NCBI RefSeq assembly: GCF_001897285.1
Contig: NZ_MKSM01000123.1
Location: 12,675 to 76,674, forward strand
Origin: Nitrobacter sp. 62-23
Lineage (GTDB): Bacteria > Pseudomonadota > Alphaproteobacteria > Rhizobiales > Xanthobacteraceae
Length of the DNA stretch: 64,000 nucleotides
Direction: 5' to 3'
Made by a program: the position numbers and the translations under genes. This document shows, in pieces, positions 7,990 to 60,168 of this stretch. The first letter of the stretch is position 1. Each line of letters starts with the position of its first letter. The notes under the pieces are model-generated. The model made no database searches. It worked only from the letters and a program-made list of their open reading frames with translations, and was not told where the DNA came from.

Positions 7990-8195
7990 CAGAGTCTTTC
8001 ACCGTTTCACGGAAACAGTGAAAGACTCTACGCTCTTGATTTGACACGTTTTCTTCACGCGAACCGGTATCCGCTTCGCTCGAAAACGCTATAGCGCGTA
8101 TTCCGCAAAAGTGGATATTAGTTTTGCGATCGGAATACGCGTCAAAATAAAGCGAGAGTCCTGCTTCTGATTCCATCAGAAGCGGAAGGGCTCTA
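7990..8195. mobile_element. Composite TAG-bounded mini-element (four palindromic modules)
   Basis: Contains ttgatttgac.cgttttcttcacgcgaaccggtatcc.cttcgctcgaaaacgcta, shared with at least 8 other loci; the end cta 8193-8195 is the stop of the adjacent gene. Confidence 0.75.
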
Positions 8196-12918: not shown

Positions 12919-13020
12919 CGAGGCCTTTCCGCTTCCGATAGAATCAGAAGCGGAACTCCATATTTTTGATTGACGCGTTTTCTTGACGCGAACCGGTAGC
13001 CACTTCGCTTGAAAACGCTA
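12919..13020 (-). mobile_element. TAG-bounded mini-element; terminal TAG is the dnaQ stop
   Basis: Reverse complement tagcgttttcaagcgaagtggctaccggttcgcgtcaagaaaacgcgtcaatcaaaa plus a ttccgcttc.gat/atc.gaagcggaa hairpin. Confidence 0.75.
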
Positions 13021-16912: not shown

Positions 16913-17018
16913 CTATAGCGTTTTCGAGCGAAGTGGAATCCGGTTCGCGTGAAGAAAACGCGTCAAATCAAGAGCCTAGAGCCTTTCACTGTTTCCATGA
17001 AACGGTGAAAGACTCTAG
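16913..17018 (+). mobile_element. TAG-bounded mini-element (two modules)
   Basis: ctatagcgttttcgagcgaagtgg..ccggttcgcgtgaagaaaacgcgtcaaatcaagagc + ctagag.ctttcac.gtttc.atgaaac.gtgaaagactctag. Confidence 0.8.
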
Positions 17019-24326: not shown

Positions 24327-24433
24327 CCAGAGAGCGTTTCAAGCGAAGTGGCCACCGGTTCGCGTAAAGAAGACGCATCAAATCAAAACATAGAACCCTG
24401 CCTCTGATTCCATCAGAAGCGGGAAAGGCTCTA
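24327..24433 (+). mobile_element. TAG-bounded mini-element (two modules)
   Basis: agagcgtttcaagcgaagtgg.caccggttcgcgt..agaagacgcatcaaatcaa + ctctgattccatcagaag hairpin ending ggctcta. Confidence 0.75.
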
Positions 24434-26419: not shown

Positions 26420-27301
26420 ATGGCCGACGAAGCGCGTTCGCGACTGGGCCGCGGTCTTGCAAGTCTGATCGGCGACGTCGGCGGCGAGGCGGCCCACGCC
26501 GAGCGCCCGCGCACGCAGCGCAAGGTGGCGATCGAATTCCTGAAACCCAATCCGCGCAATCCGCGCCGGGCGTTTTCCGATGTCGAGCTCGGCGAGCTGG
26601 CCGATTCGATTCGCCAGCACGGCGTGATCCAGCCGATCGTGGTGCGCCCGGTGAAGGGCGTTCAGGATCGCTACGAGATCATCGCCGGCGAACGGCGCTG
26701 GCGCGCGGCGCAGGCGGCGGGATTGCATGACGTCCCGATCGTGCCGGTCGACGTCAGCGACCACGTCGCGCTGGAGATCGCGATCATCGAGAACGTGCAG
26801 CGCGAAGACCTCAACGCGATGGAAGAGGCGAAGGGCTATCACGCGCTTGCCGACGAATTCAAACGCACCCAGGACGAAATTGCAAAGATCGTCGGCAAGA
26901 GCCGCAGCCACGTCGCCAACATGATGCGGCTGACCAAGCTGCCCGAGGACGTGCAGGCGCTGATCGCTTCCGGCGAGTTGTCGGCGGGCCACGCGCGCGC
27001 GCTGATCGGCGTGCCCGATCCGTCTACGGCCGCGAAGCGCATCGTCGCGGAAGGGCTGAACGTGCGCCAGGCCGAGGCGCTCGCGCATGAGGCCGGCGTG
27101 CCGGAGCGCAAGCCGCCGAAGGCGCGCGCGGACAAGGCGCAGAAGGACGCCGATACGTTGGCGCTGGAAAAGCGGGTCAGCGACGCGCTCGGCCTTGCGG
27201 TGACGGTGGATCACAAGAACCCCGGCGGCGTCGTGCAGATCCGTTACCGCGATCTCGATCAGCTCGACGAGATTTTGAAGCGGCTGGACACCAAAAACTA
27301 G
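26420..27301 (+). CDS. parB: Chromosome partitioning protein ParB
   Basis: LGRGLASLI, NPRNPRR, IIAGERRWRAAQ, IIENVQREDL, GKSRSHVAN. Confidence 0.96.
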   Translation: MADEARSRLGRGLASLIGDVGGEAAHAERPRTQRKVAIEFLKPNPRNPRRAFSDVELGELADSIRQHGVIQPIVVRPVKGVQDRYEIIAGERRWRAAQAAGLHDVPIVPVDVSDHVALEIAIIENVQREDLNAMEEAKGYHALADEFKRTQDEIAKIVGKSRSHVANMMRLTKLPEDVQALIASGELSAGHARALIGVPDPSTAAKRIVAEGLNVRQAEALAHEAGVPERKPPKARADKAQKDADTLALEKRVSDALGLAVTVDHKNPGGVVQIRYRDLDQLDEILKRLDTKN

Positions 27302-27346
27302 GGCATGGTTCTTTTGGCCCAACCGGCAACCTGTCATTCCGGGCTG

Positions 27347-27410
27347 TAGAGCGTTTTCGAGCGAAGTGGGGACCGGTTCGCGTGAGGAAAACGCGTCGAC
27401 TAGGCTCTAG
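27347..27410 (+). mobile_element. Minimal TAG-bounded mini-element; far end is the stop of the Trm112-like gene
   Basis: tagagcgttttcgagcgaagtgggg accggttcgcgtgaggaaaacgcgtcgactaggctctag; TAGAG...CTCTA termini. Confidence 0.8.
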
Positions 27411-27604
27411 CCGATTTTCCGTGCCTCTTCCGGCAGCATGATCGGAATGCCGTCGCGGATCGGGTAGGCGAGTTTGGCCGAACGCGAAATCAGCTCCTGC
27501 CGCGCGCCGTCGAATTCCAATGGTCCCTTGGTCACCGGACAGACCAGAACCTCCAGCAGCTTGGGATCGACGGTGTCTTCGGAACGGTCGGAGGAGGTGG
27601 TCAT
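27407..27604 (-). CDS. Trm112/YcaR family protein
   Basis: [25 protein letters not shown]. Confidence 0.93.
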
Positions 27605-27684
27605 GCATCTCTCTTTGAAAAACAGATCCGGCGAAATTCTGGAGCCGGTTCACTTACGATGAATCGGACTCGTCGCTTATCCTT

Positions 27685-27834
27685 TTGTTTGAGCGTAATC
27701 TTTTTTCCCAAAAAACGGTATTCGCTTTTCGAGATCATGCTCCAGATTCATTGTTTTTGACGCACGGCCTTCACGCGAACCGGTTTCCATCTCCGGGTCG
27801 AGCCCGAAAACATGCTTCGCTCGAAAACGCTGCA
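27685..27834 (-). mobile_element. Composite mini-element with an internal ccgggtcgagcccg hairpin
   Basis: gagatcatgctcca module joined to tttttgacgc...ttcacgcgaaccggt...cttcgctcgaaaacgct. Confidence 0.65.
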
Positions 27835-27866
27835 GCATTCGCACCCCCGCTTCAGCAGCTCTCCGG

Positions 27867-39032: not shown

Positions 39033-41482
39033 AATTCACCCTCTCCTGGCTGAAAGAGCATCTCGACACCGACGAGCCGCTGGACAAACTCGCCGACAAG
39101 CTGACCATGATCGGGCTCGAGGTCGAGCACATCGCGGACAAGTCGAAGGCGCTTGCGCCCTACACCGTCGCGCGGGTGGTCTCGGCCGTGCAGCATCCGA
39201 ACGCGGATCGTCTCAGGGTGTGCATGGTCGATACCGGCGAGACCAATGACAAGGGCGAGCCCGCTTATATCCAGGTGGTGTGTGGCGCGCCCAACGCGCG
39301 CGAGGGCCTCGTCAGCGTGTTCGCGCCGCCCGGCACCTACATTCCGGGCAAGGACATCACGCTTGGGGTCGGCACCATTCGCGGCGTCGAGAGCCGCGGC
39401 ATGCTGTGCTCCGCGGCCGAACTCGAAATTTCCGACGACCATGACGGCATTATCGAACTGCCGGCTGACGCGCCGGTCGGCACCGGCTATGCGGAATGGG
39501 CCGGCCTCGGCGATCCCGTCATCGAGATTAACCTGACGCCGAACCGGCAGGACTGCACCGGCGTGCACGGCATCGCGCGCGACCTCGCCGCCGCCGACAT
39601 GGGCAGCCTCAAAAATCCGACCATCAAGCCGGTCAAGGGCGAATTCCCCTGCCCGGTGAAGGTCACGGTTGAAGACGCCGCGCTTTGCCCCGGCTTCGCG
39701 CTGCGGCTGGTTCGCGGGGTGAGGAACGGCCCCTCACCGGAATGGCTGCAAAAGCGCCTGACCTCGATCGGCCTGCGTCCGATCAACGCGCTGGTCGATA
39801 TCACTAACTTCATGACCTACGATCGCGGCCGGCCGTTGCACGTGTTCGACGCGAACAAGGTGCATGGCAATCTCACGGTGCGCCGCGCCCGCGACGGCGA
39901 GACGCTGCTTTCGCTCGACGGCCGCACCTACACGCTCGATCCGGGCGTCTGCGTTATCGCCGACGACAACGGTGTCGAATCGCTCGCCGGCATCATGGGC
40001 GGCGAGGAATCCGGCTGCGACGAGGGCACGACGGATGTGCTGATCGAATCGGCGCTGTGGAGCGAGATCAACATCGCGCAGACCGGCCGCAGGCTCGGCA
40101 TCAATTCCGACGCGCGCTATCGTTTCGAGCGTGGCGTCGATCCCGCTTTCATGGTGCCCGGGCTTGAGATGGCGACGCGGCTGGTGATGGAATTGTGCGG
40201 CGGCACGCCGTCGGAGACGATCGTCGCCGGACAGGCGCTGCCCGAGGACCGGGTGATCGATTTTCCGCTGGCGGAGACCAAACGTCTCGCGGCGATCGAC
40301 GTGCCGCTGCCTGAGATGCGCCGCATTCTCGGCCGTCTCGGCTTCATGGTGGCCGGCAATGGCCCCGTGGTGAAGGTCGCCATTCCAACCTGGCGCACCG
40401 ACGTTCACGGCAAGGCCGACATCGTCGAGGAGATCGTGCGCATCGTCGGCGTCGACAAGGTGCCGATGACGCCGTTCGATCGGGGCGACGCGGCACGCAA
40501 GCCGGTGCTGACGCCGATCCAGTCGCGCACGCGAAAGACGCGGCGTGCGCTCGCGGCGCGCGGCATGGTCGAAGCCGTCAACTGGTCGTTCATCGCGAAA
40601 TCGCAGGCCGAATTGTTCGGCGGCGGGAATGCGGAATTGGCGCTCGCCAATCCGATCGCGGCTGATCTCTCCGACATGCGGCCGAGCCTGCTGCCGGGCC
40701 TCGTCGCCATCGCGCAGGCCAATGCCGACCGCGGCTTTCCGGATGTGGCGCTGTTCGAGGTCGGGCAGATCTTCCGTGGCGACCGTCCACAGGATCAGTT
40801 CACCGCGGCCGCCGGCGTTCGCCGCGGCATCGCCTCGTCGGCAGGCATCGGGCGGCACTGGTCGGGCTCGGCCGCGGCGGGTTCGCTTGATGCCAATACC
40901 TTCGATGTAAAGGCCGATGCGTTCGCGGTGCTGGCCGCAGCCGGCGCGCCTGTGCAGGCGATGCAGGCTGCGGCCAGCAATGAGTCGAAGAATTTTCCGG
41001 CATGGCTGCATCCCGGACGTTCGGCCGCGATCCAGATCGGGCCGCATAACGTGCTCGGCTATTTCGGCGAGTTGCATCCGCGCGTGCTTGAGGCGTTGAG
41101 AGCCGACGGTCCGGTGATGGCGTTCGAGGTGATCCTCGACCGCATTCCGGAAAGCAAGCAGAAGGCGACGCGCGCCAAGCCGGTGCTGGAGCTGCCGGCG
41201 TTTCAGCCGGTGTCGCGCGACTTCGCCTTCATCGTCGATCGCGGCGTGAAAGCCGCCGACATCGCGCGCGCGGCGCAAGGCGTGGACAAAAAACTGATCG
41301 CCGGCGTCACCGTGTTCGACGTCTATGAGGGCAAGGGCATCGAGGCGAACAAGAAATCGGTCGCCATCGCGGTGGCGATCCAGCCGCGTGACAAGACGCT
41401 GACCGATCAGGAGATCGACGCGGTGGCGGCGAAGATCGTCGCCGAGGTCACGAAGAAAACCGGCGGGAGCTTGCGGGGCTAA
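39029..41482 (+). CDS. pheT: Phenylalanine-tRNA ligase beta
   Basis: [45 protein letters not shown]-like C-terminus. Confidence 0.97.
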
Positions 41483-41484
41483 AG

Positions 41485-41773
41485 CTAGAGTCTTTCACCT
41501 TTTCACGGAAACGGTGAAAGACTCCAGGTTCTTGATTTGACCCGTTTTCTTGACGCAACCGGTTTTCTTGACGCAACCGATCGCCACTTCGCCTGAAAAC
41601 GCTCTAGTGGAGTGAATTTGACATTCGCTACCCACTTTGCAGCGAACTTGTCAGGCGAATGTCACATTCAAAACTCCACTAGAAACCTGATAGTTGCTAG
41701 TGGTCCTTTGATTCTAACATCTGCAGGAACTCCCTGCCGCAACGGGATGCAAATGTTAGAATCGGACCACTAG
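41485..41773. mobile_element. Chain of mini-elements joined at CTAG
   Basis: CTAG at 41485, 41604, 41678, 41696, 41770; 18-bp internal tandem duplication 41544-41579; last CTAG holds the secB stop. Confidence 0.8.
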
Positions 41774-42258
41774 CTCGGCTTTTGTTGCGCTGCTTCCTGC
41801 GCTGCCTGGCGTTCCATGTTTTGCCGGTACAAGCTCACGAAATCGATGGGGTCAAGCATCAGCGGTGGGAATCCGCCGTCGCGGACGACCGTCGCAACGA
41901 TTTGGCGCGCGAACGGGAATAACAGCCGCGGGCATTCGATCATGACCAGCGGATGCAGGTTTTCCTTGGGAACGTTGACGATCCGGAACACCCCGGCATA
42001 GGCCAGCTCGAAACCGAACATCAGCTTGCCGGTATGTTCGGCCTTGCCCTCGACCTTCAGAACCACCTCGTAGTCGTTCTCCGCGACATTGGAGGCGCCG
42101 ACATTGATTTGAACGTTAATCGAGGGGGGCTGTTGCTGCGGGGCAAGCGAGGCAGGCGCATTGGGATTCTCGAAAGAGAGATCCTTGGTGTATTGGGCCA
42201 GCACATTCAACTGGGGTGAAGGGCCCGCCTCTGGAGGTGTGCCGTTGCCGTTGGTCAT
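41770..42258 (-). CDS. secB: Protein-export chaperone SecB
   Basis: [45 protein letters not shown]. Confidence 0.96.
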
Positions 42259-42601
42259 TGGATTTCTCTCCTGAAACATTCAAGCGAAGCCGGGGAATGA
42301 TTGGCTTGCTTGAAGGGGCAAATTGCCGCGCCGCCGCGAGTGGCTATCACAAGCCTGCCGCTGTCCACAAGGACAGTGGGACCATTGAGAGGGGGGCTTT
42401 GGCTGAGGTTGCTCGTCGCATTTAGCCTAGAGCTTTCGAAAAACCGCCGCAGGTTGCATAGTCTGGCGGCTTAAACTGTTGAAGGAACGCGTTTTCTTCC
42501 CGCATTCCGATTTCCCCTTTGATCGGAAACGCGCTATTATTCCTCAAAGCTGCAGTTGAGGAGACAACTCCCTGATCCGGTTCGTTATGCTAAAACGCGG
42601 C

Positions 42602-42630
42602 CTTGGCCGGACCGGAGATCATACCTACAT
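42602..42630 (+). promoter_or_regulatory. RpoH (sigma32)-type promoter upstream of tim44
   Basis: CTTGGC-N16-CCTACAT versus alphaproteobacterial CTTGAA-N16-CCTATAT. Confidence 0.5.
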
Positions 42631-42718
42631 TATTGACGCCGTCTGATGCGAACCGGTGACCCTCGCGGGACGTTCGTTCACCGGACGAGAACCAGACCGA
42701 TCAGAAAGTGAAGACGAC

Positions 42719-43423
42719 GTGGATATTTACACCATCATTTTTCTGGCGCTAGCGGTTTTTATCTTCCTGCGGCTGCGCAGCGTCCTGGGCCAGCGCACGG
42801 GAAGTGAGCGTCCGCCTTACGATCGTGCGACGCGCGAGGTCCTGCATGGCACGCAGGACAATAATGTGGTCCCGATACCGGGCGCCGTGATCGATCAGCC
42901 CCCGTCGGAGCCCACGGCCGACGTGACGTCTGCCTCCGAGCGCTGGAAAAATCTGACCGAGCCCGGAACGCCGCTCGCTCACGGGCTCGACGCCATCGCG
43001 GCGCAGGATTCGTCCTTCGATCCGAAGCATTTCCTCAACGGCGCGCGCAGCGCTTATGAGATGATCGTGCTGGCATTCGCCAACGGCGATCGTCGGACCT
43101 TGAAGGACTTGCTGTCAGCGGATGTCTATGACAGCTTCGATGCCGCCATCAAGGATCGGGAAAAACTCGAACAGCAGACGGAAACGCGATTTGTCTCGAT
43201 CGACAAGGTCGAGCTGATTGGCGCGGAGCTACGCGAAGGCGCGGAGCAACTGACGGTCCGCTTCATTTCGCAGATGATTTCGATCACCCGCGACAAGACC
43301 GGAGCAATTGTCGACGGAAACCCTGAGAAGATTTCCGACATCACCGATGTTTGGACGTTTGCCCGCGATATCGCATCGCGTGATCCGAACTGGAAACTGG
43401 TTGGCACCGGAAGCGCCAGCTAA
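42719..43423 (+). CDS. Tim44/TimA-like protein
   Basis: N-terminal TM then RLRSVLGQRTG, FLNGARSAYEMIV, DVWTFARD, NWKLV. Confidence 0.9.
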   Translation: MDIYTIIFLALAVFIFLRLRSVLGQRTGSERPPYDRATREVLHGTQDNNVVPIPGAVIDQPPSEPTADVTSASERWKNLTEPGTPLAHGLDAIAAQDSSFDPKHFLNGARSAYEMIVLAFANGDRRTLKDLLSADVYDSFDAAIKDREKLEQQTETRFVSIDKVELIGAELREGAEQLTVRFISQMISITRDKTGAIVDGNPEKISDITDVWTFARDIASRDPNWKLVGTGSAS

Positions 43424-44912
43424 TCTTTACCGATTTAAAAGGTGCGCCGCCGGATTTTGCGTCGCCGCCGCGCTCATGCCTGTCGCGCTCGAAGCCCGGC
43501 ATGCCCCTCGTCATCCGGTCTGGCCGTTCGAGATCGCGGGCGGTCAATATCTGCCGGTGGCATGGGCCGATATCGCCGGCTGGAAAGACGATGATCACCT
43601 TGAAGCATTCAGGGCGTTTCGCAGGAGCTGCCGTGCGATAACCGCGAGGCAGCCTCCGGCCGCCAGCCCGAAAGCACTGGGCGCGTCATTGCGGGAGCCG
43701 TGTCGTGCCGCCAAGGTTATCGACAATCCGGACGGCGCCAGGGCACGCGCCTTCTTCGAAACCCATTTCCGGCCGGTGCAAATTTCGCGTCTCGGCGAAG
43801 CCGACGGCTTCGTCACCGGCTATTATGAGCCGATCATCGATGGATCACGCACCAGGACCGATGTCTATAGCGTGCCGGTTTACCGGCGTCCCTCGAACCT
43901 CTTCGTCCGGGGATTCACGCAAAGCTCACCGAGCCTGCCGAACAGCGGACCTGTCTATCGCAAGATCGGCAGGCGAAAACTCGTCCCCTATTATGATCGC
44001 GCGGAGATCGAAGATGGCGCGATTGCGGGCCGCGGCCTTGAGATCTGCTGGCTCAAGAGCCAGACCGATCTGCTCTTTACGCAAATCCAGGGGTCCGCGC
44101 GCGTCCGGCTCGAGGATGGCTCGACGCTGCGCATCAACTATGATTCCTATAATGGATATCCCTATACTGCCGTCGGCCGTATCCTGATCGAGCGCAACAT
44201 CATCCCGAAGGACCAGATGTCGATGCAGCGCATCAGGCAGTGGATGACTGAAAATCCGGATGGCGCCAGCGAGTTGCGCCGCCAAAACCGTTCATATGTT
44301 TTCTTCCGCGAGGTGAAGCTCTCGGACAACGACGAGGCGGTCGGGGCGCAGGGCGTACCGCTGGCGCCCGGCCGTTCGATCGCGGTCGATAAATCGCTGC
44401 ACGTCTATGGCACCCCTTTCTTTATCGAAGGGGAATTGCCGATCGAATCGGAACAGGCGAAAACCCCGTTCCATCGGCTGATGATCGCGCAGGATACCGG
44501 CTCGGCAATCGTCGGCCCGGCTCGCGCCGACCTCTATTTCGGCGCAGGTTCGGAAGCAGGCCGCATCTCTGGCCGCCTGCGCCACAATATGCATTTCGTA
44601 ATGCTCGTCCCCAACAGCCTCGATCCCGCGGTGAGCGGCAGAACCATGCCGCTTCCGGAAAAAAGGCCCTCGGCGAGGATCGCAAAGCTGTTTCCGCCGA
44701 AGCATCAGAAGTCGGACGACGGCCACAAGGCCGCCCCGCAACGGGCCGTATCCTCATCCGTGGCTCCCGCCGGCAAGCCGGCTGGGACCGCTGCCGCGCC
44801 GGCGAGAGCCGAGTCCTCAGGAACCGCTTCGTCTCCGGTGATACAACCCGACAAGTCCGCTCGTCATCCGCGGCGTCATCACCGCCGGCGCTGGCGCAGC
44901 CCGACACGATGA
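43401..44912 (+). CDS. mltA: MltA lytic murein transglycosylase (start uncertain)
   Basis: VTGYYEP, QIQGS, NRSYVFF, SIAVD, AQDTGSAIVG..RADLYFG. Confidence 0.88.
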   Translation: MAPEAPANLYRFKRCAAGFCVAAALMPVALEARHAPRHPVWPFEIAGGQYLPVAWADIAGWKDDDHLEAFRAFRRSCRAITARQPPAASPKALGASLREPCRAAKVIDNPDGARARAFFETHFRPVQISRLGEADGFVTGYYEPIIDGSRTRTDVYSVPVYRRPSNLFVRGFTQSSPSLPNSGPVYRKIGRRKLVPYYDRAEIEDGAIAGRGLEICWLKSQTDLLFTQIQGSARVRLEDGSTLRINYDSYNGYPYTAVGRILIERNIIPKDQMSMQRIRQWMTENPDGASELRRQNRSYVFFREVKLSDNDEAVGAQGVPLAPGRSIAVDKSLHVYGTPFFIEGELPIESEQAKTPFHRLMIAQDTGSAIVGPARADLYFGAGSEAGRISGRLRHNMHFVMLVPNSLDPAVSGRTMPLPEKRPSARIAKLFPPKHQKSDDGHKAAPQRAVSSSVAPAGKPAGTAAAPARAESSGTASSPVIQPDKSARHPRRHHRRRWRSPTR

Positions 44913-45493
44913 AGCGCTCGTCGCCGGACACCTTCGCGAGACTGCGTCGCCAGCGCGTTCTTACAGATGATGAACGTCAGTTGTGGGAAAGCGTCGCCGG
45001 CCAGGCCAAACCGTTGCGCAAATGCTCCCGGTCAACGGCAGCTTCCGTGGCGTTGCGCGAGGCAGCAGGCCTCGCGGTGCCGTCCGCTCCAGCGCCAAAG
45101 CCGACGTCGCCCGACGTCGCCAAAGTCAGAAGGACAAAAGCTCCGCCGCCCGTATCGCTCACCCGACGCGAGCGATCGCAACTGTCGCGGGGACGCAAAG
45201 ACATCGACGCCCGGATCGATTTGCATGGCATGACGCAGACGCGGGCGCATCGCGTCCTGCTGCGTTTTCTGCAGAACGCCTCAAGCGATGGTCTGACCTT
45301 CGTGCTTGTCATCACCGGCAAGGGCCGGGCGGCCGATCCGGATTCCGGACGCGGCGTGCTTCGGCGGCAGGTCCCGCAGTGGCTCGCGCTGCCCGAATTC
45401 CGCTCGCTGGTCGCCGGCTTCGACGAGGCGCATGTCGGCCATGGCGGCGAGGGTGCGCTTTACGTCCGCTTGCGGCGCGCGCGGGGTTTTTAG
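44909..45493 (+). CDS. Smr/MutS2 family protein
   Basis: IDARIDLHGMTQ, LVITGKG, HGGEGALYVRL. Confidence 0.92.
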   Translation: MKRSSPDTFARLRRQRVLTDDERQLWESVAGQAKPLRKCSRSTAASVALREAAGLAVPSAPAPKPTSPDVAKVRRTKAPPPVSLTRRERSQLSRGRKDIDARIDLHGMTQTRAHRVLLRFLQNASSDGLTFVLVITGKGRAADPDSGRGVLRRQVPQWLALPEFRSLVAGFDEAHVGHGGEGALYVRLRRARGF

Positions 45494-45582
45494 AGCATCG
45501 GAAACCGGCTTTCGGATAAGATCATGCTCGATCAAAAAGATATGGCTAGAGTCTGGTTCACCGCAGTTGAATCAGAATCTAG
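45491..45582. mobile_element. Mini-element supplying both smr and hslU stops
   Basis: tagagcat...gatcatgctc module + ctagagtctg...cagaatctag module; TAG 45491-93 and cta 45579-81. Confidence 0.75.
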
Positions 45583-46880
45583 AGAATGAATCTGCTCAGA
45601 TCGGCATTCTTCGCCAGATCGCCGACGTGTTTCTGAACATATGCGGCGTCGATGCGGACCGTCTCTCCATTTCGATCGGGCGCCGAGAACGAAACATCGT
45701 CGAGCACCCGCTCCATCACCGTCTGCAGTCGTCGCGCACCGATATTCTCGACGGTGGAATTCACCGCGACTGCGATATCCGCAAGCGCATCGATGGCGTC
45801 GTCGGAGAAGTCGAGCGTGACGCCTTCGGTCTGCATCAACGCGACATACTGCTTGATGAGCGAGGCCTCCGGTTCGGTCAGGATGCGCCGCATGTCATCG
45901 CGTGTCAGAGCATCCAGTTCGACGCGGATCGGCAGCCGGCCCTGCAATTCGGGCAGCAGGTCCGACGGCTTGGCGATGTGAAACGCGCCCGAGGCGATGA
46001 ACAGGATGTGGTCGGTCTTGACCGCGCCGTGCTTGGTGGAGACCGTCGTTCCCTCGATCAGCGGCAGCAGGTCGCGCTGCACGCCTTCGCGCGACACGTC
46101 TCCGCCGCTGCGGCCGTCACGCACGCAGATCTTGTCGATCTCGTCGAGAAATACGATGCCGTTGTTCTCGACGGCGGCGACCGCCTCCTGCGTGAGCTGA
46201 TCGGTATCGAGCAGCTTGTCGGATTCCTCGTTGACCAGGATTTCATGGGAATCTTCCACGCTCAGTCGGCGGGTCTTGGTTCGTCCGCCCATCTTGCCGA
46301 AGATATCGCCGATCGAGATCGCGCCGACCTGCGCACCGGGCATCCCCGGGATCTCGAACATCGGCGCTCCGCCGGAGGATTGGGTCTCGATCTCGATTTC
46401 CTTGTCGTTGAGTTCGCCAGCCCGCAACTTCTTGCGAAAGGAATCGCGCGTAGCGGCGCTGGAGTTCGCTCCCACCAGCGCATCGAGCACGCGTTCCTCC
46501 GCGGCGAGCTGCGCGCGCGCCTGAACGTCCTTGCGCTTGCGCTCGCGGGTCTGGTTGATCGCGACCTCCACAAGATCGCGAACGATCTGTTCGACGTCGC
46601 GCCCGACATATCCGACTTCGGTGAACTTCGTCGCCTCGACCTTGAGGAACGGTGCGTTCGCCAGCTTGGCCAGCCGCCGCGCGATCTCGGTCTTGCCGAC
46701 GCCGGTCGGCCCGATCATCAGGATGTTTTTCGGCAGCACTTCCTCGCGCAGCGGTCCGGTCAACTGCTGGCGCCGCCAACGATTGCGCAAGGCGATGGAG
46801 ACGGCGCGCTTGGCGTCGGTCTGGCCGACGATGAAACGATCGAGTTCGGAAACGATTTCGCGAGGAGAGAAGTGCATCAT
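45579..46880 (-). CDS. hslU: HslU ATPase subunit
   Basis: [52 protein letters not shown]. Confidence 0.97.
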
Positions 46881-46919
46881 GATCTCGAAGATATGGTGAA
46901 ACGTTGCGGTAACAAGCGG

Positions 46920-47525
46920 TCAGATGATGGGCGGTCCGGACTGCCAGTGCCGGATGGCTTCGAACGGGTGGATCAGCATGATGACGTTGAGCGTCAGGTT
47001 GTCACGGATATGCAGTCCGACCAGCACTTCAAGCAGAATCGCCAGAACGATCGTCAAGGCAATCGGAAGTTTGTGCGCGAGCACGAATCCCGCGATCATG
47101 GCGAGTGTATCGGACAGCGAATTGACGATGCTGTCGCCATAGTAGTCCAGGGAAATGGTCGCTGCGCGATAGCGATCGATGATCCAGGGCGAGTTCTCCA
47201 CGATCTCCCATGCGCCCTCGATGGTGATCGCGATCAGAAGGCGGGTGATCCAGGTGGCGCGAGGCAGGACCAGCCAGGTCGCGCCGTAAAACAGAAATCC
47301 ATGGATGATGTGGGAGAAGGTGTACCAGTCGGTGAGGTGCTGCGAATTCTCGGAGCTTTGCACCACGCCATGCCAGAACTTGACGTAGCCGCAGGCGCAG
47401 ATCGGGACCCGCCCCATGGCATAAAGGATCGCGGCCTGCGTGATCAGCAGGCCGAGGGCGATCAATGCGCCATTGGGCACGGAGAGACCGCGCGACGGAT
47501 GAACGGACTCAGTATGAACGGGCAT
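46920..47525 (-). CDS. DUF2585 family membrane protein
   Basis: [39 protein letters not shown]. Confidence 0.85.
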
Positions 47526-47529
47526 AAGG

Positions 47530-48084
47530 TCAGCCCGCCGCCAGCGTCTCGATCGTGACGTTTCGGTTGGTATAAACGCAGATGTCGGCGGCGATATCGA
47601 GCGAACGGCGGACGATGGCTTCCGCGTCCTTGTCGGAGTCGATCAACGCCCGCGCGGCGGACAGCGCATAATTGCCGCCGGAGCCGATCGCCATCACGCC
47701 GGCTTCCGGCTCCAGAACGTCGCCGGTGCCGGTCAGGACCAGCGACACATCCTTGTCGGCGACGAGCATCATGGCTTCGAGCCGCCGCAGATAACGGTCG
47801 GTGCGCCAGTCCTTGGCGAGTTCGACCGCGGCGCGGGTGAGCTGACCGGGGTATTGCTCGAGCTTGCTCTCCAGCCGCTCGAACAGCGTGAAAGCGTCGG
47901 CGGTGGCGCCGGCGAACCCGCCGATCACATCGCCCTTGCCAAGTTTCCGGACCTTCTTCGCATTGGACTTGATGACAGTCTGTCCGATCGAGACCTGGCC
48001 GTCTCCGCCAATAACGACCTTGCCGCCCTTGCGGACGGTCAGGATCGTGGTGCCGTGCCACACCTGCGGCTGTGATGCTTGCAT
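47530..48084 (-). CDS. hslV: HslV protease subunit
   Basis: [32 protein letters not shown]. Confidence 0.97.
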
Positions 48085-48108
48085 CTGAACCCCTTCGTGA
48101 TCCGCCAG

Positions 48109-48137
48109 ATTTAGGCATTACGACGGGACGTTGCAAT
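48109..48137 (-). promoter_or_regulatory. RpoH (sigma32)-type promoter of hslV
   Basis: Minus strand ATTGCA-N16-CCTAAAT; the gene is a classical heat-shock target. Confidence 0.6.
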
Positions 48138-48158
48138 CGGCGTTCGAAGTCGCGGATT

Positions 48159-48327
48159 CTGGTGGTCCGGTTCTAACATTCGCATCCCGTTTCCGCAGTT
48201 ATTTTTGCGAATGTCAGAATCGCAGGACCACCAGCAACTATAAGTTTCCAGTGGAGTTTTGGATTTGACATTCATATCCCGGCATCCGCGGCAGATGGGT
48301 AGTGAATGTTCAAATCCCCTCCGCTAG
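48159..48327. mobile_element. Two-hairpin mini-element, inverted homologue of 41604-41773
   Basis: ctggtggtcc...ttctaacatt.gcatcccgtt...ggaccaccag caactata.gttt ccagtggag...tttgacattc...gaatgt..aaat..ctccgctag. Confidence 0.8.
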
Positions 48328-48471
48328 TCACCATGGCGCGAAGAACCCCGGCAAAAGGCGTCGTCTCGCGGTAGCGAAGAGAGCATGAGCCTGTTAAAAG
48401 GGCCCCGTTGAGGACCCGCATGATCCGGGCGCCCGTTTGGCGGATCATGCGCGACGCGGAGAGCCCGATTC

Positions 48472-49065
48472 ATGCGCACGGCGACCATCAAGCGCAAAAC
48501 CAAGGAAACCGACATCGAGGTTGCGGTGAACCTCGACGGCTCCGGCGTGTCCCAGGTTGCGACCGGCATCGGCTTTTTCGACCATATGCTGGACCTGCTC
48601 GCCCGCCACTCGCGCATCGACATCACCGTCAAGGCCGACGGCGACCTCCACGTCGATCATCACCACACCACCGAAGATGTCGGCATCGCGCTGGGGCAGG
48701 CGGTGAAGCAGGCGCTCGGCACCATGGCCGGCATCACCCGCTATGCTGGTGTTCATATGCCCATGGACGAGACGCTGTCGCGTGTCGTGATCGACATTTC
48801 GGGCCGTCCGATGCTGGTCTTCAGGGTCGAGTTTCCGCGCGACAAAATAGGCGAATTCGACACCGAGCTGGTGCGCGAATGGTTCAATGCCTTTGCGGTC
48901 AATGCGGGCGTGACTTTGCACGTTGAAACCCTATATGGCGAGAACAGCCATCATATCGCCGAATCCTGCTTCAAGGGTCTGGCGCGGGCGCTTCGCGCGG
49001 CGGTGGCGATCGATCCGCGCGCCGCGGGCGAGGTGCCGTCAACAAAGGGCCAGCTCGGCGGCTGA
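48472..49065 (+). CDS. hisB: Imidazoleglycerol-phosphate dehydratase
   Basis: [33 protein letters not shown]. Confidence 0.97.
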
Positions 49066-49092
49066 TCGCCCTGTCGTCGACGGAGAGTGCAA

Positions 49093-49611
49093 ATGCCGGT
49101 CTATACAGTCCATGCGCCGCCTGCCGAAGGTACGGACGTGCGCGGCGCCCCGGACCGATTCGTGTTCGTACGCGATGGTTTTTCGTTCTGGGCCTTCGTA
49201 TTCGGTCCGTTGTGGTTGCTTTATCAACGGCTCTGGCTGGCGTTCGCCGGATATATGGTGCTGTCGATCGCGCTCGAAGTCGTGATGACGCTGCTGCGCG
49301 TCAGTGGCGGGACACGCCTGACGGTGATGGTGGTCATTGCCGTGCTGATGGGACTGGAAGCGGCGAGCTTGCGTCGCTGGACGCTGTCGCGGCGCAAATG
49401 GCGCCAGCTTGATGTCGTTGTCGCGGACGACCGCGAAGCGGCCGAGCGGCGTTTTTTCGACCGCTGGACGACGATGCGGGGAACAGAGTTCGATCCGTTG
49501 GCTGTCGATCGTGGGGCGCCGCCGCCGACTCGTAGCGTTCCGGAGCAGCCGTTCGCGCCGCCGCGCGGCGACATTGTCGGCCTGTTTCCGCAACCCGGGA
49601 TGCCGCGGTGA
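49093..49611 (+). CDS. DUF2628 family membrane protein
   Basis: [26 protein letters not shown]; typical position between hisB and hisH. Confidence 0.8.
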
Positions 49612-50258
49612 CGGCTGCGATCATCGACTATGGCTCCGGCAATCTTCATTCGGCCGCCAAAGCGTTCGAATGCGCGGCGCGCGGGATCGAAGGTCTGCAA
49701 AAGATCGTGGTGACGCGCGATCCGGACGTGGTGTTCCGGGCCGACCGCGTGGTGCTGCCCGGTGTCGGCGCGTTCGCCGATTGCCGCAAGGGACTCGATG
49801 CGCTCGACGGCATGGTCCAGGCCCTGACCGAGGTGGTGCGCGACAAGGCGCGCCCGTTCCTGGGCATTTGCGTCGGGATGCAACTGATGGCGACACGCGG
49901 CAAGGAGCACGTCACGACCGATGGCCTGAACTGGATTGCGGGCGACGTCGAAAAGATTTCGCCGCGCGACGAGAGCCTGAAGATTCCGCATATGGGCTGG
50001 AATACCCTCGATCCGGTGCGCGAGCATCCGGTGCTCGATCGCCTGCCGCTGGGACCGAAAGGCCGTCACGCCTATTTCGTGCATTCCTATCACCTGAACG
50101 CGGTCAACGAGACCGATGTGCTGGCGCGCGCCGACTACGGCGGCCCGGTGACGGCGATCGTCGGCAGGGACACCGCGATCGGCACACAGTTTCATCCCGA
50201 AAAGAGCCAGCGGTTCGGGCTCGCGCTGATTTCGAACTTTCTGAAGTGGAAACCGTGA
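49608..50258 (+). CDS. hisH: IGP synthase glutaminase subunit
   Basis: [35 protein letters not shown]. Confidence 0.97.
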
Positions 50259-50995
50259 TTCTTTTTCCCGCCATCGATCTGAAGAACGGCCAATGCGTTC
50301 GCCTGGAGCAGGGCGACATGGCGCGCGCCACCGTGTTCAATCTCGATCCAGCCGAGCAGGCGCGCACCTTCGCCGCGCAAGGCTTCGAATATCTGCACGT
50401 GGTCGATCTCGACGGCGCCTTTGCCGGCAAGCCCGTGAATGCAGATGCGGTGGAGCGGATGCTGAAGGCCGTGGCCATGCCGGTCCAACTCGGCGGCGGC
50501 ATCCGGGACCTGAAGACGATCGAGGCGTGGCTCGGCAAGGGCATCGCGCGCGTCATCATCGGCACCGCCGCGGTGCGCGATCCGGTTCTGGTCAAGCAGG
50601 CCGCGAAGTCATTTCCGGGGCGCGTCGCGGTCGGTCTCGATGCGCGCGATGGCAAGGTTGCCGTCGAAGGCTGGGCGGAAACCTCGGAGGTGACCGCGCT
50701 TGATATCGCGCGGCGGTTCGAGGACGCGGGCATCGCGGCGATCATCTTTACCGATATCGCCCGCGACGGCCTGCTGAAGGGTCTCAACCTCGAAGCCACC
50801 ATCGCGCTCGCCGAGAGCATTTCAATTCCGGTGATTGCGTCCGGCGGCTTCGCCTCCATCGCGGATGTGGAGGCATTGCTCACGCCGCGCGCGAGGAAGC
50901 TCGCGGGCGCGATCGCCGGACGCGCGCTCTATGACGGCCGGCTTGATCCGACTGAGGCGCTGGCGCTGATCCGCGCCGCGCGCGCGGCGGCCTGA
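50255..50995 (+). CDS. hisA: ProFAR isomerase
   Basis: GTG start overlapping hisH stop; [30 protein letters not shown]. Confidence 0.95.
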
Positions 50996-51010
50996 GAGTA
51001 TTTGCGCGCG

Positions 51011-51787
51011 ATGTTCAAGGTCCGTGTCATACCCTGCCTCGACGTGAAGGATGGCCGCGTCGTCAAGGGCGTCAACTTCGTGGATCTGCGCGATGCCGGC
51101 GACCCGGTTGAAGCCGCCATCGCCTACGATGCCGCCGGTGCCGACGAACTCACCTTTCTCGACATCACCGCGACGCACGAGAATCGCGGTATCATGCTGG
51201 ATGTGGTCCGGCGCACGGCGGAAGCCTGCTTCATGCCGGTGACGGTCGGCGGCGGCGTTCGCACCATCGATGACATCCGTGTCTTGCTGCGCTCCGGCGC
51301 GGACAAGGTCTCGATCAACAGCGCGGCGGTGAGCCGGCGCGACTTCGTCAGGGAAGCCGCGGAAAAGTTCGGCGACCAGTGCATTGTGGTCGCGATCGAC
51401 GCCAAGCGGGTGTCGAAAGCCGGCGGCTCGGACCGCTGGGAAATCTTCACCCATGGCGGCCGAAAATCCACCGGCATCGACGCGATCGAATATGCCCAGG
51501 AGGTGGTGTCGCTCGGCGCCGGCGAGATCCTGCTGACCTCGATGGATCGCGACGGCACCCGTCAGGGCTTCGATCTGCCGCTGACGCGTTTGGTGGCCGA
51601 CAGCGTTTCGGTGCCGGTGATCGCGTCCGGCGGCGTGGGTCATCTCGATCACCTGGTCGAGGGGATTCGCGAAGGCCATGCGACGGCGGTGCTTGCCGCG
51701 TCGATCTTTCACTTCGGGGAATTTACCATTCGCCAAGCCAAGGATCATATGGCCCGCGCCGGGTTGCCGATGCGGCTCGATCCCTGA
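51011..51787 (+). CDS. hisF: IGP synthase cyclase subunit
   Basis: [46 protein letters not shown]. Confidence 0.97.
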
Positions 51788-51866
51788 CGACTCCGCTTCG
51801 CGGAAGTGCTAAACATTCAAAAATTTGCGCGTTCCGCATGATCGGCGCCAGGACAAGCAGAGTAGC

Positions 51867-52190
51867 ATGCCGCGTTTCACGATTCATGATCTTGCCGCCA
51901 CCATCGACGCCCGGGCTGTATCCGGCGGCGAGGTATCCTATACGCGAAAGCTGCTCGACAAAGGTCCTGAGCATTGCGCCAAAAAGTTTGGCGAGGAAGC
52001 CGTCGAGACGGTGATCGCTGCGGTGGAGAACGACCGGAATCACCTGATCGCCGAAGGCGCCGACGTGATGTTTCACTTCCTTGTACTGTTGAAAGCCCGC
52101 GGCGTGAAGTTCCAGGATATCGAAGATGCCCTGGCGCAGCGCACGACGATGTCGGGACTCGAAGAGAAGGCTGCGCGCAATCGCGAGTAG
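51867..52190 (+). CDS. hisE: Phosphoribosyl-ATP pyrophosphatase
   Basis: [31 protein letters not shown]. Confidence 0.93.
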
Positions 52191-52206
52191 CCGGAGGGCG
52201 AGCTTG

Positions 52207-53163
52207 ATGGATTCGCGGCCAGAGCAGCAGCAGTATAATCCGTACCGGATTTTCTCCCGCGCCGAGTGGGCGAAGCTCCGGCACGACATGCCGATGACGC
52301 TGGGCGCGAATGAAATCGCGGCATTGCGCTCGATGCATGACCGCCTCGATCTCATGGAAGTCGAGGAGATCTATCTGCCGTTGTCCAGGCTGTTGTCGAT
52401 CTATGTCGCGTCGATGCAGCGGCTCTTCGTCGCCCAGCGCCAGTTTCTCGGCATCCACGATCGCAAGGTGCCGTATATCATCGGTGTGGCGGGATCGGTC
52501 GCGGTCGGGAAATCGACCACGGCCCGCGTGCTGCAGGCGCTGCTGGCGCGATGGTCGCCGCGCCCCAAGGTCGAACTCGTCACCACCGATGGATTTCTGT
52601 TTCCGAACGCGGTGCTCGAGCGACACGGCCTGATGCAGAAAAAGGGTTTTCCGGAGAGTTACGATTTGCCGCTATTGCTGGGGTTTCTCAGCGACGTCAA
52701 GGCGGGCCGCACGCCGGTGCGCGCGCCGGTTTACTCGCACCTGACCTACGACATCGTGCCCGATAGCTGGAACGAGGTCAGTCAGCCCGACATCCTGATC
52801 GTCGAAGGCGTCAATGTGCTGCAGACCGGCCCGCTGCCGCGCGACGGCAGGGCCGTTCCGGTTGTCTCCGATTTCTTCGATTTCTCGGTCTATCTCGACG
52901 CCGAGGAACCGGTGCTGCGGGACTGGTATGTGAAGCGTTTCCTGGCGCTGCGGGACACCGCCTTCCATGACCCGCGATCCTACTTTCATCGCTACGCGCT
53001 GCTGTCGGACGAGGAGGCCACCGCCACGGCCATCGCGATCTGGGAGCGCACCAATCGCGCCAATCTCGAGGACAACATTTTGCCGACACGGCCGCGGGCC
53101 ACCCTGATTCTCAAGAAGGGAGCGGACCACGTCGTCGAGCAGGTCGCGTTGAGGCGGCTTTAG
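52207..53163 (+). CDS. coaA: Type I pantothenate kinase
   Basis: [43 protein letters not shown]. Confidence 0.96.
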
Positions 53164-53400
53164 AGTCTTTCACCTTGTCATGGAAACGGTGAAAGATTCC
53201 AGATCCTTGATTTGACGCGTTTTCTTCACGCGAACCGGTATCCACTTCGCTCGAAAACGCTATAGAGCATTTTCCGGCGAAGTGGATACCGGTTCGCCGT
53301 GAGAAAATGCGAAGATTTTCAGAGCATGATCCCGAAAAGCCTGCCGGACTTGATCCCGGGTGGAACGGTTTCCGGACGGGAGCATGCTCAATCAAACAGG
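53161..53400. mobile_element. Four-module mini-element chain; first TAG is the coaA stop
   Basis: tagagtctttcac hairpin, ttgatttgacgcg...gaaaacgcta, tagagcattttcc, cagagcatgatcc...gcatgctc. Confidence 0.8.
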
Positions 53401-55677
53401 GCCGGATTCCACAGCGTTGAATTCAGACTTTGCCGCGACGTGACGCGCCGCCAGTTTTGCGAGCGCGTCGGCCAGCTTGTCCTGATCGAGCGGCTTGACC
53501 AGAAAGCCATCCATGCCTGCCTCCAGACAGGCATGGCGATCGTCTGTCAGCGTATTGGCCGTCAACGCCAGAATGGCGGTGCGGCGGAGGTGACCACCGG
53601 CTTCCTGTTCACGGATTTTCCGGGTGGCCTCGATGCCATCGAGCTTCGGCATCTGGACGTCCATCAGCACGAGGTCATAGGGCCTATTCGCGGTTTCGGC
53701 GGCGACCCACGATACAAGCGCTTCCTCGCCGTCTGCGGCGACGGTCACGTCATGCCCGAGCCGGGCCAGGAGCGAGCATATCAATAGCGCATTGATCTCG
53801 TTGTCCTCCGCCACGAGGATGGAAAGGCTTTGCGCAGGGGCCGGGGCCGGCGCCCCGCACGCTTCGATCGTCGCGCCATCCGGGCCGGTCATCCGCTGCG
53901 CGGTGGAGCCGTCGACCGGCGCCGTCAACCGCGCTGCGATCGACGCGGTTCGCAGGGGCTTGACCAGATAGCCCGTGAACGCGGCCGCGCCGGGAGCCTG
54001 AAGATCGTGCCTTGTCGAGGGCGTGACCAGGATGATCCGCCGCGCTGCGTGCTGGCAGGCGGCCTGACCGAACCGCCAGACATCCTCCGCGCCCATGGCA
54101 TGATCGACGAATACGGTGTGCCACGGCCGCTCGGCAAGCCGCGCTTGGGCAGCGGCGATATCCGATGCCATGCAGGTCTCGGCGCCCCATCGCTCCAGCC
54201 GCCGGGCCAACAGTGATGCCTCGATCGCATGGGGGGTTACCAGCAGGATCGCTTGGCCTGTGAGGGCCGGCGGGGAAAACGGCTTTCGCTCGGAGACGCC
54301 GTCATGAGCGGCGAGGGGTATCGACACCTCGAACGCCGAGCCGGCCCCCGGCCTGCTGTCAACCGCGATGCGCCCGCCCATCCGCTTGACGATGCGATCG
54401 CTGATACTCAGTCCCAGGCCCGTGCCGCCATAGTTCCGCGCGATCTGTTCGTCGGCCTGCTCGAATTCGCGGAAAATTCGCGCCTGCGCATCCGCCGTTA
54501 TGCCGATTCCGGTGTCCTGAACCAAAAAGCGGGTATCACCCGGTTGCCTGCCGGGCTCGACGATCAGCGCGACGCCGCCGGATGGCGTGAACTTGATGGC
54601 GTTTCCCGCAAGATTGAGCAGAACCTGGCGCAATCGCGCCGCGTCTCCGATCACTTCGATCGGCAGCCGGTCGTCGATAAAGGCTGCGATTTCGAGTTGC
54701 CGCGCGTGCGCACGCGGCGCCAGCAGTTCGGTGATATCCTCGATCAGGTCGGGCAGGACGAAAGGACGGTTTTCAAGCTCGATCTTGCCGGCTTCGATCT
54801 TGGAATAGTCCAGCAGTTCCTCGATCAACGACAGCAGTGCGTCGCCGGAAGTCTTGACCGCGCTGGCGTATGTTGCCTGCTCAGGCGTGAGCTGGGTGTC
54901 GAGCAACAGTCCGCTCATGCCGATGATGCCGTTCAGCGGGGTGCGAAACTCATGCGAGGTCATCGCCAGGAAACGCGATTTGGCCCGGTTGGCCGCGTTC
55001 GCGTGATCGCGCGCTTCAGCGAGCGCGCGCTCCGTCTCCATGCGGCTGGTGACATCGCGGCCGACGCATTGCAGTTCCGCCGGGTGATTGGCGTCGATCC
55101 GCACCAGGCCTTCGCGCCATGCGATCCAGCGCGGTCCGAGCGCCGTTTCGACGCGCTGATCGTGGATGCGCGTGCCGTTCGTTTCAAGCGCACTCTCACC
55201 CTGTTCAAGAACGGGGAGCGCGAACCGGCTGCCGAGCAACTCGGTTCTCGAGCGCCGGGCGAGGGCGCAATAGGCATCGTTCACCGAGGTAATAACGCCC
55301 CCCGCGTCACGCAGGACGATCAAGTCGCCTTGCGATTCGAACAGGCTGCGTGCTCGTTCCTCGGCTTCCTTCAACTCCCAGTTCCGGTCCGCGAGCGCCT
55401 CATTGTGAAGAGCCACCTTGCGAAGCTTCCTGCGCATCCAGCGCAGACGCATGCTCAGGATCGCCAGCGCGACGCAAGCCAGCGCGAAAAGGAGGCTTAC
55501 GCCGATTGCAAAGGTGTTCGGGTCGTAATCGGCGCTTTTGCTTCCGGTGATGAAGCCGTAGGCGCCTCCGAACGCGATCGAGAAAGTCGTAAAGGTCCGA
55601 AAGACAAAACTCAGGCGGGGATGTCGTCGGACCAGCCGGCGCAGCCGCGCCCTGAGCCAGAACAGTCGCGCCATCAT
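53392..55677 (-). CDS. Membrane PAS hybrid histidine kinase with pseudo-REC and REC
   Basis: SHEFRTPLNG H-box, NLAGNAIKFT, DTGIGI, GTGLGL; REC2 VAEDN/LMDVQMP/VKP. Confidence 0.9.
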   Translation of the reverse strand: MMARLFWLRARLRRLVRRHPRLSFVFRTFTTFSIAFGGAYGFITGSKSADYDPNTFAIGVSLLFALACVALAILSMRLRWMRRKLRKVALHNEALADRNWELKEAEERARSLFESQGDLIVLRDAGGVITSVNDAYCALARRSRTELLGSRFALPVLEQGESALETNGTRIHDQRVETALGPRWIAWREGLVRIDANHPAELQCVGRDVTSRMETERALAEARDHANAANRAKSRFLAMTSHEFRTPLNGIIGMSGLLLDTQLTPEQATYASAVKTSGDALLSLIEELLDYSKIEAGKIELENRPFVLPDLIEDITELLAPRAHARQLEIAAFIDDRLPIEVIGDAARLRQVLLNLAGNAIKFTPSGGVALIVEPGRQPGDTRFLVQDTGIGITADAQARIFREFEQADEQIARNYGGTGLGLSISDRIVKRMGGRIAVDSRPGAGSAFEVSIPLAAHDGVSERKPFSPPALTGQAILLVTPHAIEASLLARRLERWGAETCMASDIAAAQARLAERPWHTVFVDHAMGAEDVWRFGQAACQHAARRIILVTPSTRHDLQAPGAAAFTGYLVKPLRTASIAARLTAPVDGSTAQRMTGPDGATIEACGAPAPAPAQSLSILVAEDNEINALLICSLLARLGHDVTVAADGEEALVSWVAAETANRPYDLVLMDVQMPKLDGIEATRKIREQEAGGHLRRTAILALTANTLTDDRHACLEAGMDGFLVKPLDQDKLADALAKLAARHVAAKSEFNAVESGPV

Positions 55678-59947: not shown

Positions 59948-59996
59948 CTCTATAGCGTTTTGGAGCGAAGTGGATACCGGTTCGCGGCCGGAAAAC
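59948..59996 (+). mobile_element. Truncated TAG-bounded mini-element
   Basis: ctatagcgttttggagcgaagtggataccggttcgc..ggaaaac. Confidence 0.65.
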
Positions 59997-60168
59997 CCCT
60001 CCGGTCCGGTGATTTCGGCTGGTTCCGCCCGTCCACAAGGTTGGGTACGATGTCAAGTCGAGGCGGGACACGGTCCCTGTGTTCGGGTAACTATTCGTCC
60101 GCAATATGCCTGATTCCCTCGGGAGATTGCGCTGGGCCTGCGCGGACGGGTTCATGGCAAGGATAATA

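Follow-up and report, generated by a model that had tools for sequence, protein, structure and literature searches.

The question raised by this locus is why the ends of short palindromic repeats coincide with the stop codons of several genes, and what kind of element these repeats represent. The window, that is, the whole stretch of 64,000 nucleotides analysed here (G000:C123:12675-76674), comes from a draft genome of Nitrobacter sp. 62-23 (G000), which comprises 3.79 Mb in 142 contigs, has a G+C content of 62% and is 99.75% complete. A preliminary description had located chained palindromic modules at twelve places of the window, had read their terminal TAG as the stop codon of seven named genes, with parB as a possible eighth, and had proposed a non-autonomous MITE/REPIN-like system that prefers amber stops. 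Profile HMMs made from the window copies match at 11 of the twelve places, the exception being 35563, which gives no profile hit and resembles module D by eye only. Read from the sequence, all seven named TAG stops overlap an element terminus in exact register (7/7). The parB case is unsupported, since its TAG at 27299 sits 46 nt away from the nearest detected module. According to Pfam, the genes whose stops are involved belong to the families EI24, RNase_T (dnaQ-like), Trm112p, SecB, Smr, AAA_2 ATPase (hslU-like) and PRK (coaA-like). The modules themselves can be grouped into the following types:

Module A: a 40-nt hairpin that begins TAGAGTC.
Module B: about 62 nt, with the end ...AAAACGCT(A/C)TAG.
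Module C: a hairpin with the core CTTCTGAT.
Module D: a rarer module.
Module E: ends of the type GAGCATGATC.
Modules F1 and F2: both CTAGTGG...CCACTAG.
Module G: a rarer module.

These modules make up the elements of the window given below, where the term MITE is used in the sense argued for in the following paragraphs:

7991..8195: A-B-D-C four-module chain (A 7991-8030, B 8034-8094, D 8095-8141, C 8155-8195), from nhmmer hits and end analysis; on the right, the chain ends in a TA (8194-8195) that also belongs to the EI24-family stop codon, a TAG on the minus strand (8193-8195).
12923..13020: C-B composite MITE, with the B end on the TAG with which the dnaQ-like gene stops (minus strand, 13018-13020); synteny breakpoint with respect to five relatives.
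16913..17017: B-A composite MITE, intergenic and not on a stop codon; the flanks C-TA ... TA-G give a CTAG target.
24332..24433: B-C composite MITE, intergenic.
27347..27409: B module together with what little remains of its hairpin partner; the terminal CTA (27407-27409) serves the Trm112-like gene, on the minus strand, as its TAG stop.
27686..27835: E module plus a B variant with an additional internal hairpin, intergenic, with decayed ends.
41486..41773: A-B-F1-F2 chain with single TA dinucleotides common to adjoining units; the left end lies 3 nt past the TAA of the pheT-like gene and the TA at the right end belongs to the secB TAG (minus strand, 41770-41772); second synteny breakpoint.
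42478..42536: diverged B-like module, absent from the preliminary description; G001 and G021 have the module conserved at this same site.
45491..45581: E-G composite MITE that takes up all the space separating smr from hslU, which are convergent; the TA plus G on its left is the smr TAG (45491-45493, plus strand), and the right C plus TA is the hslU TAG (45579-45581, minus strand).
48159..48327: F2-F1 composite MITE of 169 bp, intergenic; no copy at the orthologous site of G008, G001 and G015.
53161..53394: A-B chain, followed by a B-like variant and then E; the left TA plus G is the TAG stop of coaA (53161-53163, plus strand), and the A-B unit is not present in G001.
59950..59998: truncated B module, intergenic, common to G008, G001 and G021.

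From the perspective of the whole genome, the scan of G000 with these profiles yields 768 non-overlapping modules (44 kb, 1.2% of the genome) in 456 chains, whose commonest units are two-part composites (C-B, 88; A-B, 32; F1-F2, 38) together with E alone (77). Modules measure 40-80 bp and composites 100-180 bp, and all are short, palindromic and non-coding, with terminal inverted repeats. When module copies are aligned, conservation ends sharply at (C)TA on the left and at TA(G) on the right, and the consensus ends, (C)TA-GAG...CTC-TA(G) or (C)TA-GTGG...CCAC-TA(G), are those already described. The A-B and F1-F2 families spread recently, because some of their copy pairs are at least 97% identical; the C-B copies, whose median identity is 61%, are older. 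A subset of the B modules (27755-27835 in the window and several A-B copies in G000) bears an extra GC-rich loop hairpin of the type CCTCGGGTCAAGCCCGAGG. An Rfam scan of the window returned one tRNA only, the modules matching no curated RNA family. No report on Nitrobacter MITEs was found in the literature searched, in which neither these families nor the elements from which they derive seem to have been described.

The insertion target can be read from 98 chains with both ends defined, for which the reconstructed sequence is CTAG in 57% (56/98), CTAA in 11%, TTAG in 9% and ATAG in 8%. In all 52 informative ends the inner base is unlike the opposite outer base, and the duplication therefore comprises two base pairs (TA) and not four. 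Two pairs of empty and filled sites display this duplication: an E element in G008 is bordered by TA on both sides where the empty site of G015 reads GCTC-TA-GCGAGC, and where G001 has a B-C element, G021 shows the empty sequence GCTC-TA-AGCGC. The F site (48159..48327) offers no direct view of the target, because its empty alleles read CCGG and not CTAG. The proposed (C)TA(G) target is thus borne out both by the reconstructed sites and by the duplicated TA. This target is scarce in the genome, as G000 contains 1541 CTAG sites versus 13,134 expected from base composition (observed/expected 0.12). Among the GC-balanced palindromic tetranucleotides counted in G000, CTAG has by far the lowest observed/expected value, and about a fifth to a quarter of all its sites in this genome are contained in, or adjoin, the modelled MITEs.

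As had been stated, no transposase is encoded in the window. Transposases with a PF13358 (DDE_3) domain are present elsewhere in G000, and of the 22 further Nitrobacter genomes searched, 13 have them too. A TA-anchored inverted-repeat search delimited the corresponding full-length elements. Those IS630-family elements with definable inverted repeats are TA-flanked and measure about 1043-1275 bp, mostly about 1050 bp; 15 of the 18 full-length copies with defined ends sit in CTAG, and according to Pfam the full-length copies of G000 encode DDE_3 and IS630-type HTH domains. The family also includes IS630 of Shigella and ISY100, and Tenzen and Ohtsubo are reported to have described in 1991 a preference of IS630 for CTAG. 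Between insertion sequence termini and module ends, the first 9-14 nt are identical or nearly so, the likeness being limited to the outer repeat and partly generic, because TA-GAGC is common to all. The correspondences are as follows:

L021 and L051: terminus GAGCGTTTCACG..TTTTGATTGAAG, matching the A arm, the left part of B and the right end of B.
L024 and L053: terminus GAGCATGATGAG, matching E.
L059 and L062: terminus GAGCATCGGGCG, matching the E variant at 45493.
L057: terminus GAGCATTTTCCG, matching the B variant at 53266.
L070: terminus GTGGATCGCGTCTGACATT, matching F1 and F2.
L073: terminus GCAGTTTGCTGAAAAAG, matching another MITE, found between smr and hslU in G008 and G021.

For the F family, no parent was found in G000 itself, and the one identified (L070) occurs in relatives only. 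Three full-length candidates with module-type ends in G000 were discarded, all of them being ordinary genes between two MITEs, such as a metallophosphoesterase gene between two F2 copies. Since module ends match the inverted repeats of DDE_3-encoding elements, the modules are best regarded as MITEs of several IS630-family lineages. The reading favoured here, to which we assign a probability of about 0.85, is that they are non-autonomous MITEs derived from several IS630-family insertion sequences, that they target CTAG/TA, and that they are probably moved in trans by IS630-family transposases. The non-autonomous, MITE-like nature suggested before thus agrees with the TA duplication, the empty sites and the IS630-matching ends, and IS630, one of the transposase sources then proposed, is represented by elements with matching ends in the genome and the genus.

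The number of IS630-family matches varies widely, with 29 in one 3.4-Mb closed genome and 25 in a 5-Mb genome (these two being G012 and G015); several Nitrobacter drafts show no match above threshold, perhaps only because the repeats are missing from those assemblies. Further TA-flanked palindromic MITE families exist in relatives, outside the repertoire of the window, namely after coaA in L011 (G016) and in the smr-hslU gap of G008 and G021. One of them begins GCAGGCTGTTGAAAAAG, matching the ends of the IS630-family element L073, and another begins GAACATGTTTGTTTTAGACGG.

Two other classes of short repeat have to be weighed against this assignment. The modules might be IS5-type MITEs comparable to MITEPsy1, for which CTAG/YTAA targets and a 4-nt duplication are documented (PMC3189936). 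The choice of target is shared, but none of the 52 informative ends fits a four-base duplication and the full-length elements with matching ends encode DDE_3 and an IS630-type HTH, which makes an IS5 origin very improbable. They might also be REP/REPIN palindromes that owe their dispersal to a RAYT (Y1) transposase, or else immobile structured regulatory mosaics of the BIME or RIME type, given that they are palindromic, combine as mosaics and are almost wholly intergenic. However, a search of the 99.75% complete genome for Y1_Tnp (PF01797) gave no match, which deprives the REPIN/RAYT option of the preliminary description of its transposase, and TA duplications, precise empty sites, IS630-type ends and the lack of any Rfam family are at odds with either version, so that this is the least credible of all the readings considered.

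Mobility is also visible in the comparison of species and strains, for which the coaA end was compared in 20 Nitrobacter genomes and the window was set against the 76-kb syntenic regions of five relatives. Orthologous loci do differ in the presence of elements, a polymorphism on which the proposal of mobility had been made to depend: such differences occur at the coaA, F, E and B-C sites and in strain-level variants. The latter derive from contigs of sludge RNA libraries, which are strandless, are broken at repeats, have a depth summed over all copies and were used for empty alleles only. In a close strain from these libraries (about 98% identical), exactly the 89-bp smr-hslU element is missing, with 45490 joined to 45580. 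The empty site reads TTTTAGAG, and in it a single TA is common to the smr TAG and the hslU TAA. The insertion doubled that TA, set the stops apart and made a TAG of the hslU TAA. At 48159..48327, strain variants lack F2 alone, and one contig skips about 165 bases, which is consistent with the absence of both F2 and F1, the letters at the joint not being known. Variants from the same libraries that miss only F2 (48158-48250) or only B (41521-41602) of a chain indicate that the parts of composites are gained or lost separately.

At the coaA, secB, smr and hslU stops, different element families are found in different species. Following the coaA TA, other species have E alone, B-C, or A-B ahead of older units, always right after the same TA. 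A comparison of 80 genomes from the wider family, Bradyrhizobium for the most part, showed no element next to the coaA stop outside Nitrobacter, and this hot spot is hence genus-specific.

The chained arrangement can be understood in the same terms. A single TA is common to adjoining units at 41600, 41676, 41695 and 53264, and in five chains F composites are inserted between A and B. Each element would bring a fresh (C)TA(G) at both of its ends, and new insertions hitting those sites would build chains joined by single TAs. Re-insertion at terminal TAs thus fits the mosaic look, which it would explain without a dedicated mosaic-building system.

Chains also mark places where the window departs from its relatives. 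The genes secB and dnaQ-like are convergent neighbours in 5/5 relatives compared, and in G015 the gap between them holds one C-B element whose two terminal TAGs are both stops. In G000, the block 13018-41482 is inverted, and its two breakpoints (12923-13020 and 41486-41773) both lie in MITE chains; either the repeats mediated a true inversion or the 142-contig draft is chimeric here. Similarly, where relatives hold about 24 kb, window positions 27300-27860 contain only MITE chains (27347 and 27686), a gap that may be due to deletion, to transposition or to an assembly joint at repeats.

The coincidence of element ends and stops can be explained by a mechanism that starts from the termini. All families begin with G inside the TA (TA-GAG... 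or TA-GTGG...) and end with C, and the junction therefore reads TAG on the strand that enters the element. When an element enters the TA of a stop codon, be it TAG or TAA, an in-frame TAG is accordingly restored and the protein stays as it was. Intragenic insertions would be lost to selection, and those in promoter regions would be selected against. Since CTAG is about eight times rarer than expected, the CTAGs at stop codons represent a sizeable share of the targets that are tolerated. Consistent with the earlier expectation that the protein usually remains intact, the in-frame TAG is rebuilt, and chain ends fall inside coding sequence in only two of 418 defined ends.

Whether the elements actually supply the stop codons, as had been claimed, has to be judged gene by gene. 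The claim is mostly too strong, as in most cases the stop predates the insertion, and it retains its force for new stops or last residues at smr, Trm112-like and dnaQ. The coaA gene ends in TAG in 5/6 genomes whichever element follows and in TAA in G015, which has no abutting element; other species with an empty site already have TAG or TAA there. For hslU, the stop is TAG in 5/6 genomes, TGA in G015 and TAA in the empty strain allele, and secB has TAG in four genomes, each with its own element or just a hairpin beside the stop, and TGA in two. The picture differs for three other genes. The smr stop lies inside or beside a MITE in all six species, and in G001 and G011 the gene runs two codons into an E element and stops at a TGA within its inverted repeat. 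The dnaQ-like gene varies in the length of its tail and ends on the B terminus at different positions in G000 versus G015. The Trm112-like protein ends in KIG in G000 and G021, where a B element is at the stop, and in KIE or KI elsewhere, with TGA or TAA. As the same B element lies 25 nt beyond the Trm112-like stop in G015, a small deletion may have brought the element TAG into frame. More generally, small deletions or frame differences at element ends could occasionally make an element-borne stop real, altering the last one or two residues.

Genome-wide, at least 111 chain termini of G000 lie on a stop in exact register (104 TAG and 7 TAA), a number that is a lower bound because the automatic pipeline caught only 5/7 of the window cases. 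About a quarter of the chains (108/456) touch a stop, and the TAG stops that share their TA with an element end make up 14% of the 737 called. The distances from stop to module end form a sharp one-position spike in every family (B, 23/68; C, 19/44; E, 16/36; F1, 14/20; F2, 16/29). A higher estimate, 49% on stops in the set of chains with both ends defined, was rejected, as stop-codon selection preserves the terminal TA and biases that set. Gene calls came from a home-made three-periodic Markov caller with trimmed starts, which gave 3105 genes and under-calls; the count of free intergenic CTAGs is for that reason uncertain (515-738). About half of the chain ends remained unscored, their end type being undefined or their TA decayed. 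The occupancy of the different classes of site is the following, all figures being approximate:

TA of TAG/TAA stops: 9.0% occupied; odds ratio 6.1 versus intergenic TA, p = 2e-42.
Intergenic TA: 1.6% occupied.
CTAG at stops: 35% occupied.
All intergenic CTAG: 20-27% occupied; odds ratio 1.5-2.1 for stops versus these sites.
CTAG between convergent genes: 34% occupied; for stops versus these, odds ratio 1.07, p = 0.81.
CTAG between divergent genes: 12% occupied; for stops versus these, odds ratio 3.9.

The odds ratio between convergent and divergent intergenic regions is 3.6. The preference for amber stops that had been proposed is therefore evident only against random TA (odds ratio 6.1) and is gone when stops are compared with convergent CTAG (35% versus 34%, p = 0.81), although this no-enrichment estimate takes its CTAG share of 54-60% from 98 chains only. 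Such an outcome is the one by which the preliminary description had itself proposed to refute this part of its idea. With the choice of target and the tolerance behind genes allowed for, stops show no additional preference. The coincidence of ends and stops is real and far from random, and the mechanism behind it is an ordinary one, in which IS630-type MITEs with a G-first terminus and a CTAG/TA target act together with selection.

Two readings would nevertheless grant the elements a more active role at gene ends. In one, targeting or selection favours them there and the overlap is adaptive, with the hairpin terminating transcription or stabilising the 3' end of the mRNA. The elements do fold as very stable hairpins, with z-scores from -3.6 to -10, chains per CTAG are three to four times commoner in convergent than in divergent regions, and smr has its stop in or beside a MITE in 6/6 species. 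Yet stop CTAGs are occupied no more often than convergent CTAGs, unrelated-looking families replace each other at the same sites while many relatives are empty, which fits neutral turnover, and the same convergent bias in pneumococcal repeats was read as insertion tolerance by Croucher et al. (PMC3049150). Nor does termination find a correlate in the sequence, as the element hairpins are devoid of T-tracts and a terminator scan of 40000-54000 placed none of its 11 terminator-like sites in an element, 11 being also the number obtained in shuffled sequence. The folding and terminator scans thus gave no evidence of a host function, and adaptive overlap is judged quite unlikely. In the other reading, the MITEs drive the evolution of gene ends, by replacing last codons and stops (smr, dnaQ and Trm112-like), converting TAA to TAG, splitting convergent stops and providing hairpins that act as 3' stabilisers or as barriers between convergent transcripts. 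If this were true, part of the stop occupancy would be kept by selection; we consider it unlikely.

Repeats that seem to 'donate' stops in GC-rich bacteria can be viewed accordingly: a TA/CTAG target, a G-first terminus and the rarity of CTAG suffice, and no stop-seeking is needed. At least 3.6% of the genes of G000 end inside a repeat, and annotations of gene ends, predictions of 3' UTRs and assemblies (with their contig breaks and possible chain chimeras) should be read with repeat-borne ends in mind. Several unnamed IS630-family elements and their MITE derivatives are hereby documented in Nitrobacter, a genus important in nitrification, and the polymorphic insertion sites could be used as strain markers.

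Among known systems, MITEPsy1 of Pseudomonas syringae, a 100-nt IS5-type MITE that enters CTAG or YTAA and duplicates four bases (PMC3189936), shares the CTAG target and differs from the Nitrobacter elements, which duplicate only TA and have IS630-family parents. The RUP element of Streptococcus pneumoniae, which targets TA and whose ends match IS630-Spn1 (PMC2229807), is the documented example of MITEs of this family: both systems have a TA target with a 2-bp duplication, and both consist of short non-coding derivatives whose repeats are like those of a full-length element encoding DDE_3. Unlike RUP, the Nitrobacter elements comprise several coexisting families (A-B, C-B, E-G, F1-F2 and variants), of which each is similar to another of the IS630-family elements of Nitrobacter, are mostly composites of two hairpins, form chains, probably by re-insertion at terminal TAs, and reach a high copy number (768 modules, 1.2% of the genome). 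With regard to stop codons, Croucher et al. (2011) reported that the BOX repeat encodes the stop of 36 pneumococcal genes without clear truncation of the protein; they found BOX, RUP, SPRITE and insertion sequences enriched between convergent genes, which they read as tolerance, and regarded BOX, RUP and SPRITE as parasitic non-autonomous mobile elements (PMC3049150). For those pneumococcal repeats, no link was drawn between the shared stops and a CTAG/TA target with a G-first terminus, whereas in Nitrobacter the overlap occurs in exact register, is explained by the mechanism of insertion and extends to at least 111 genes.
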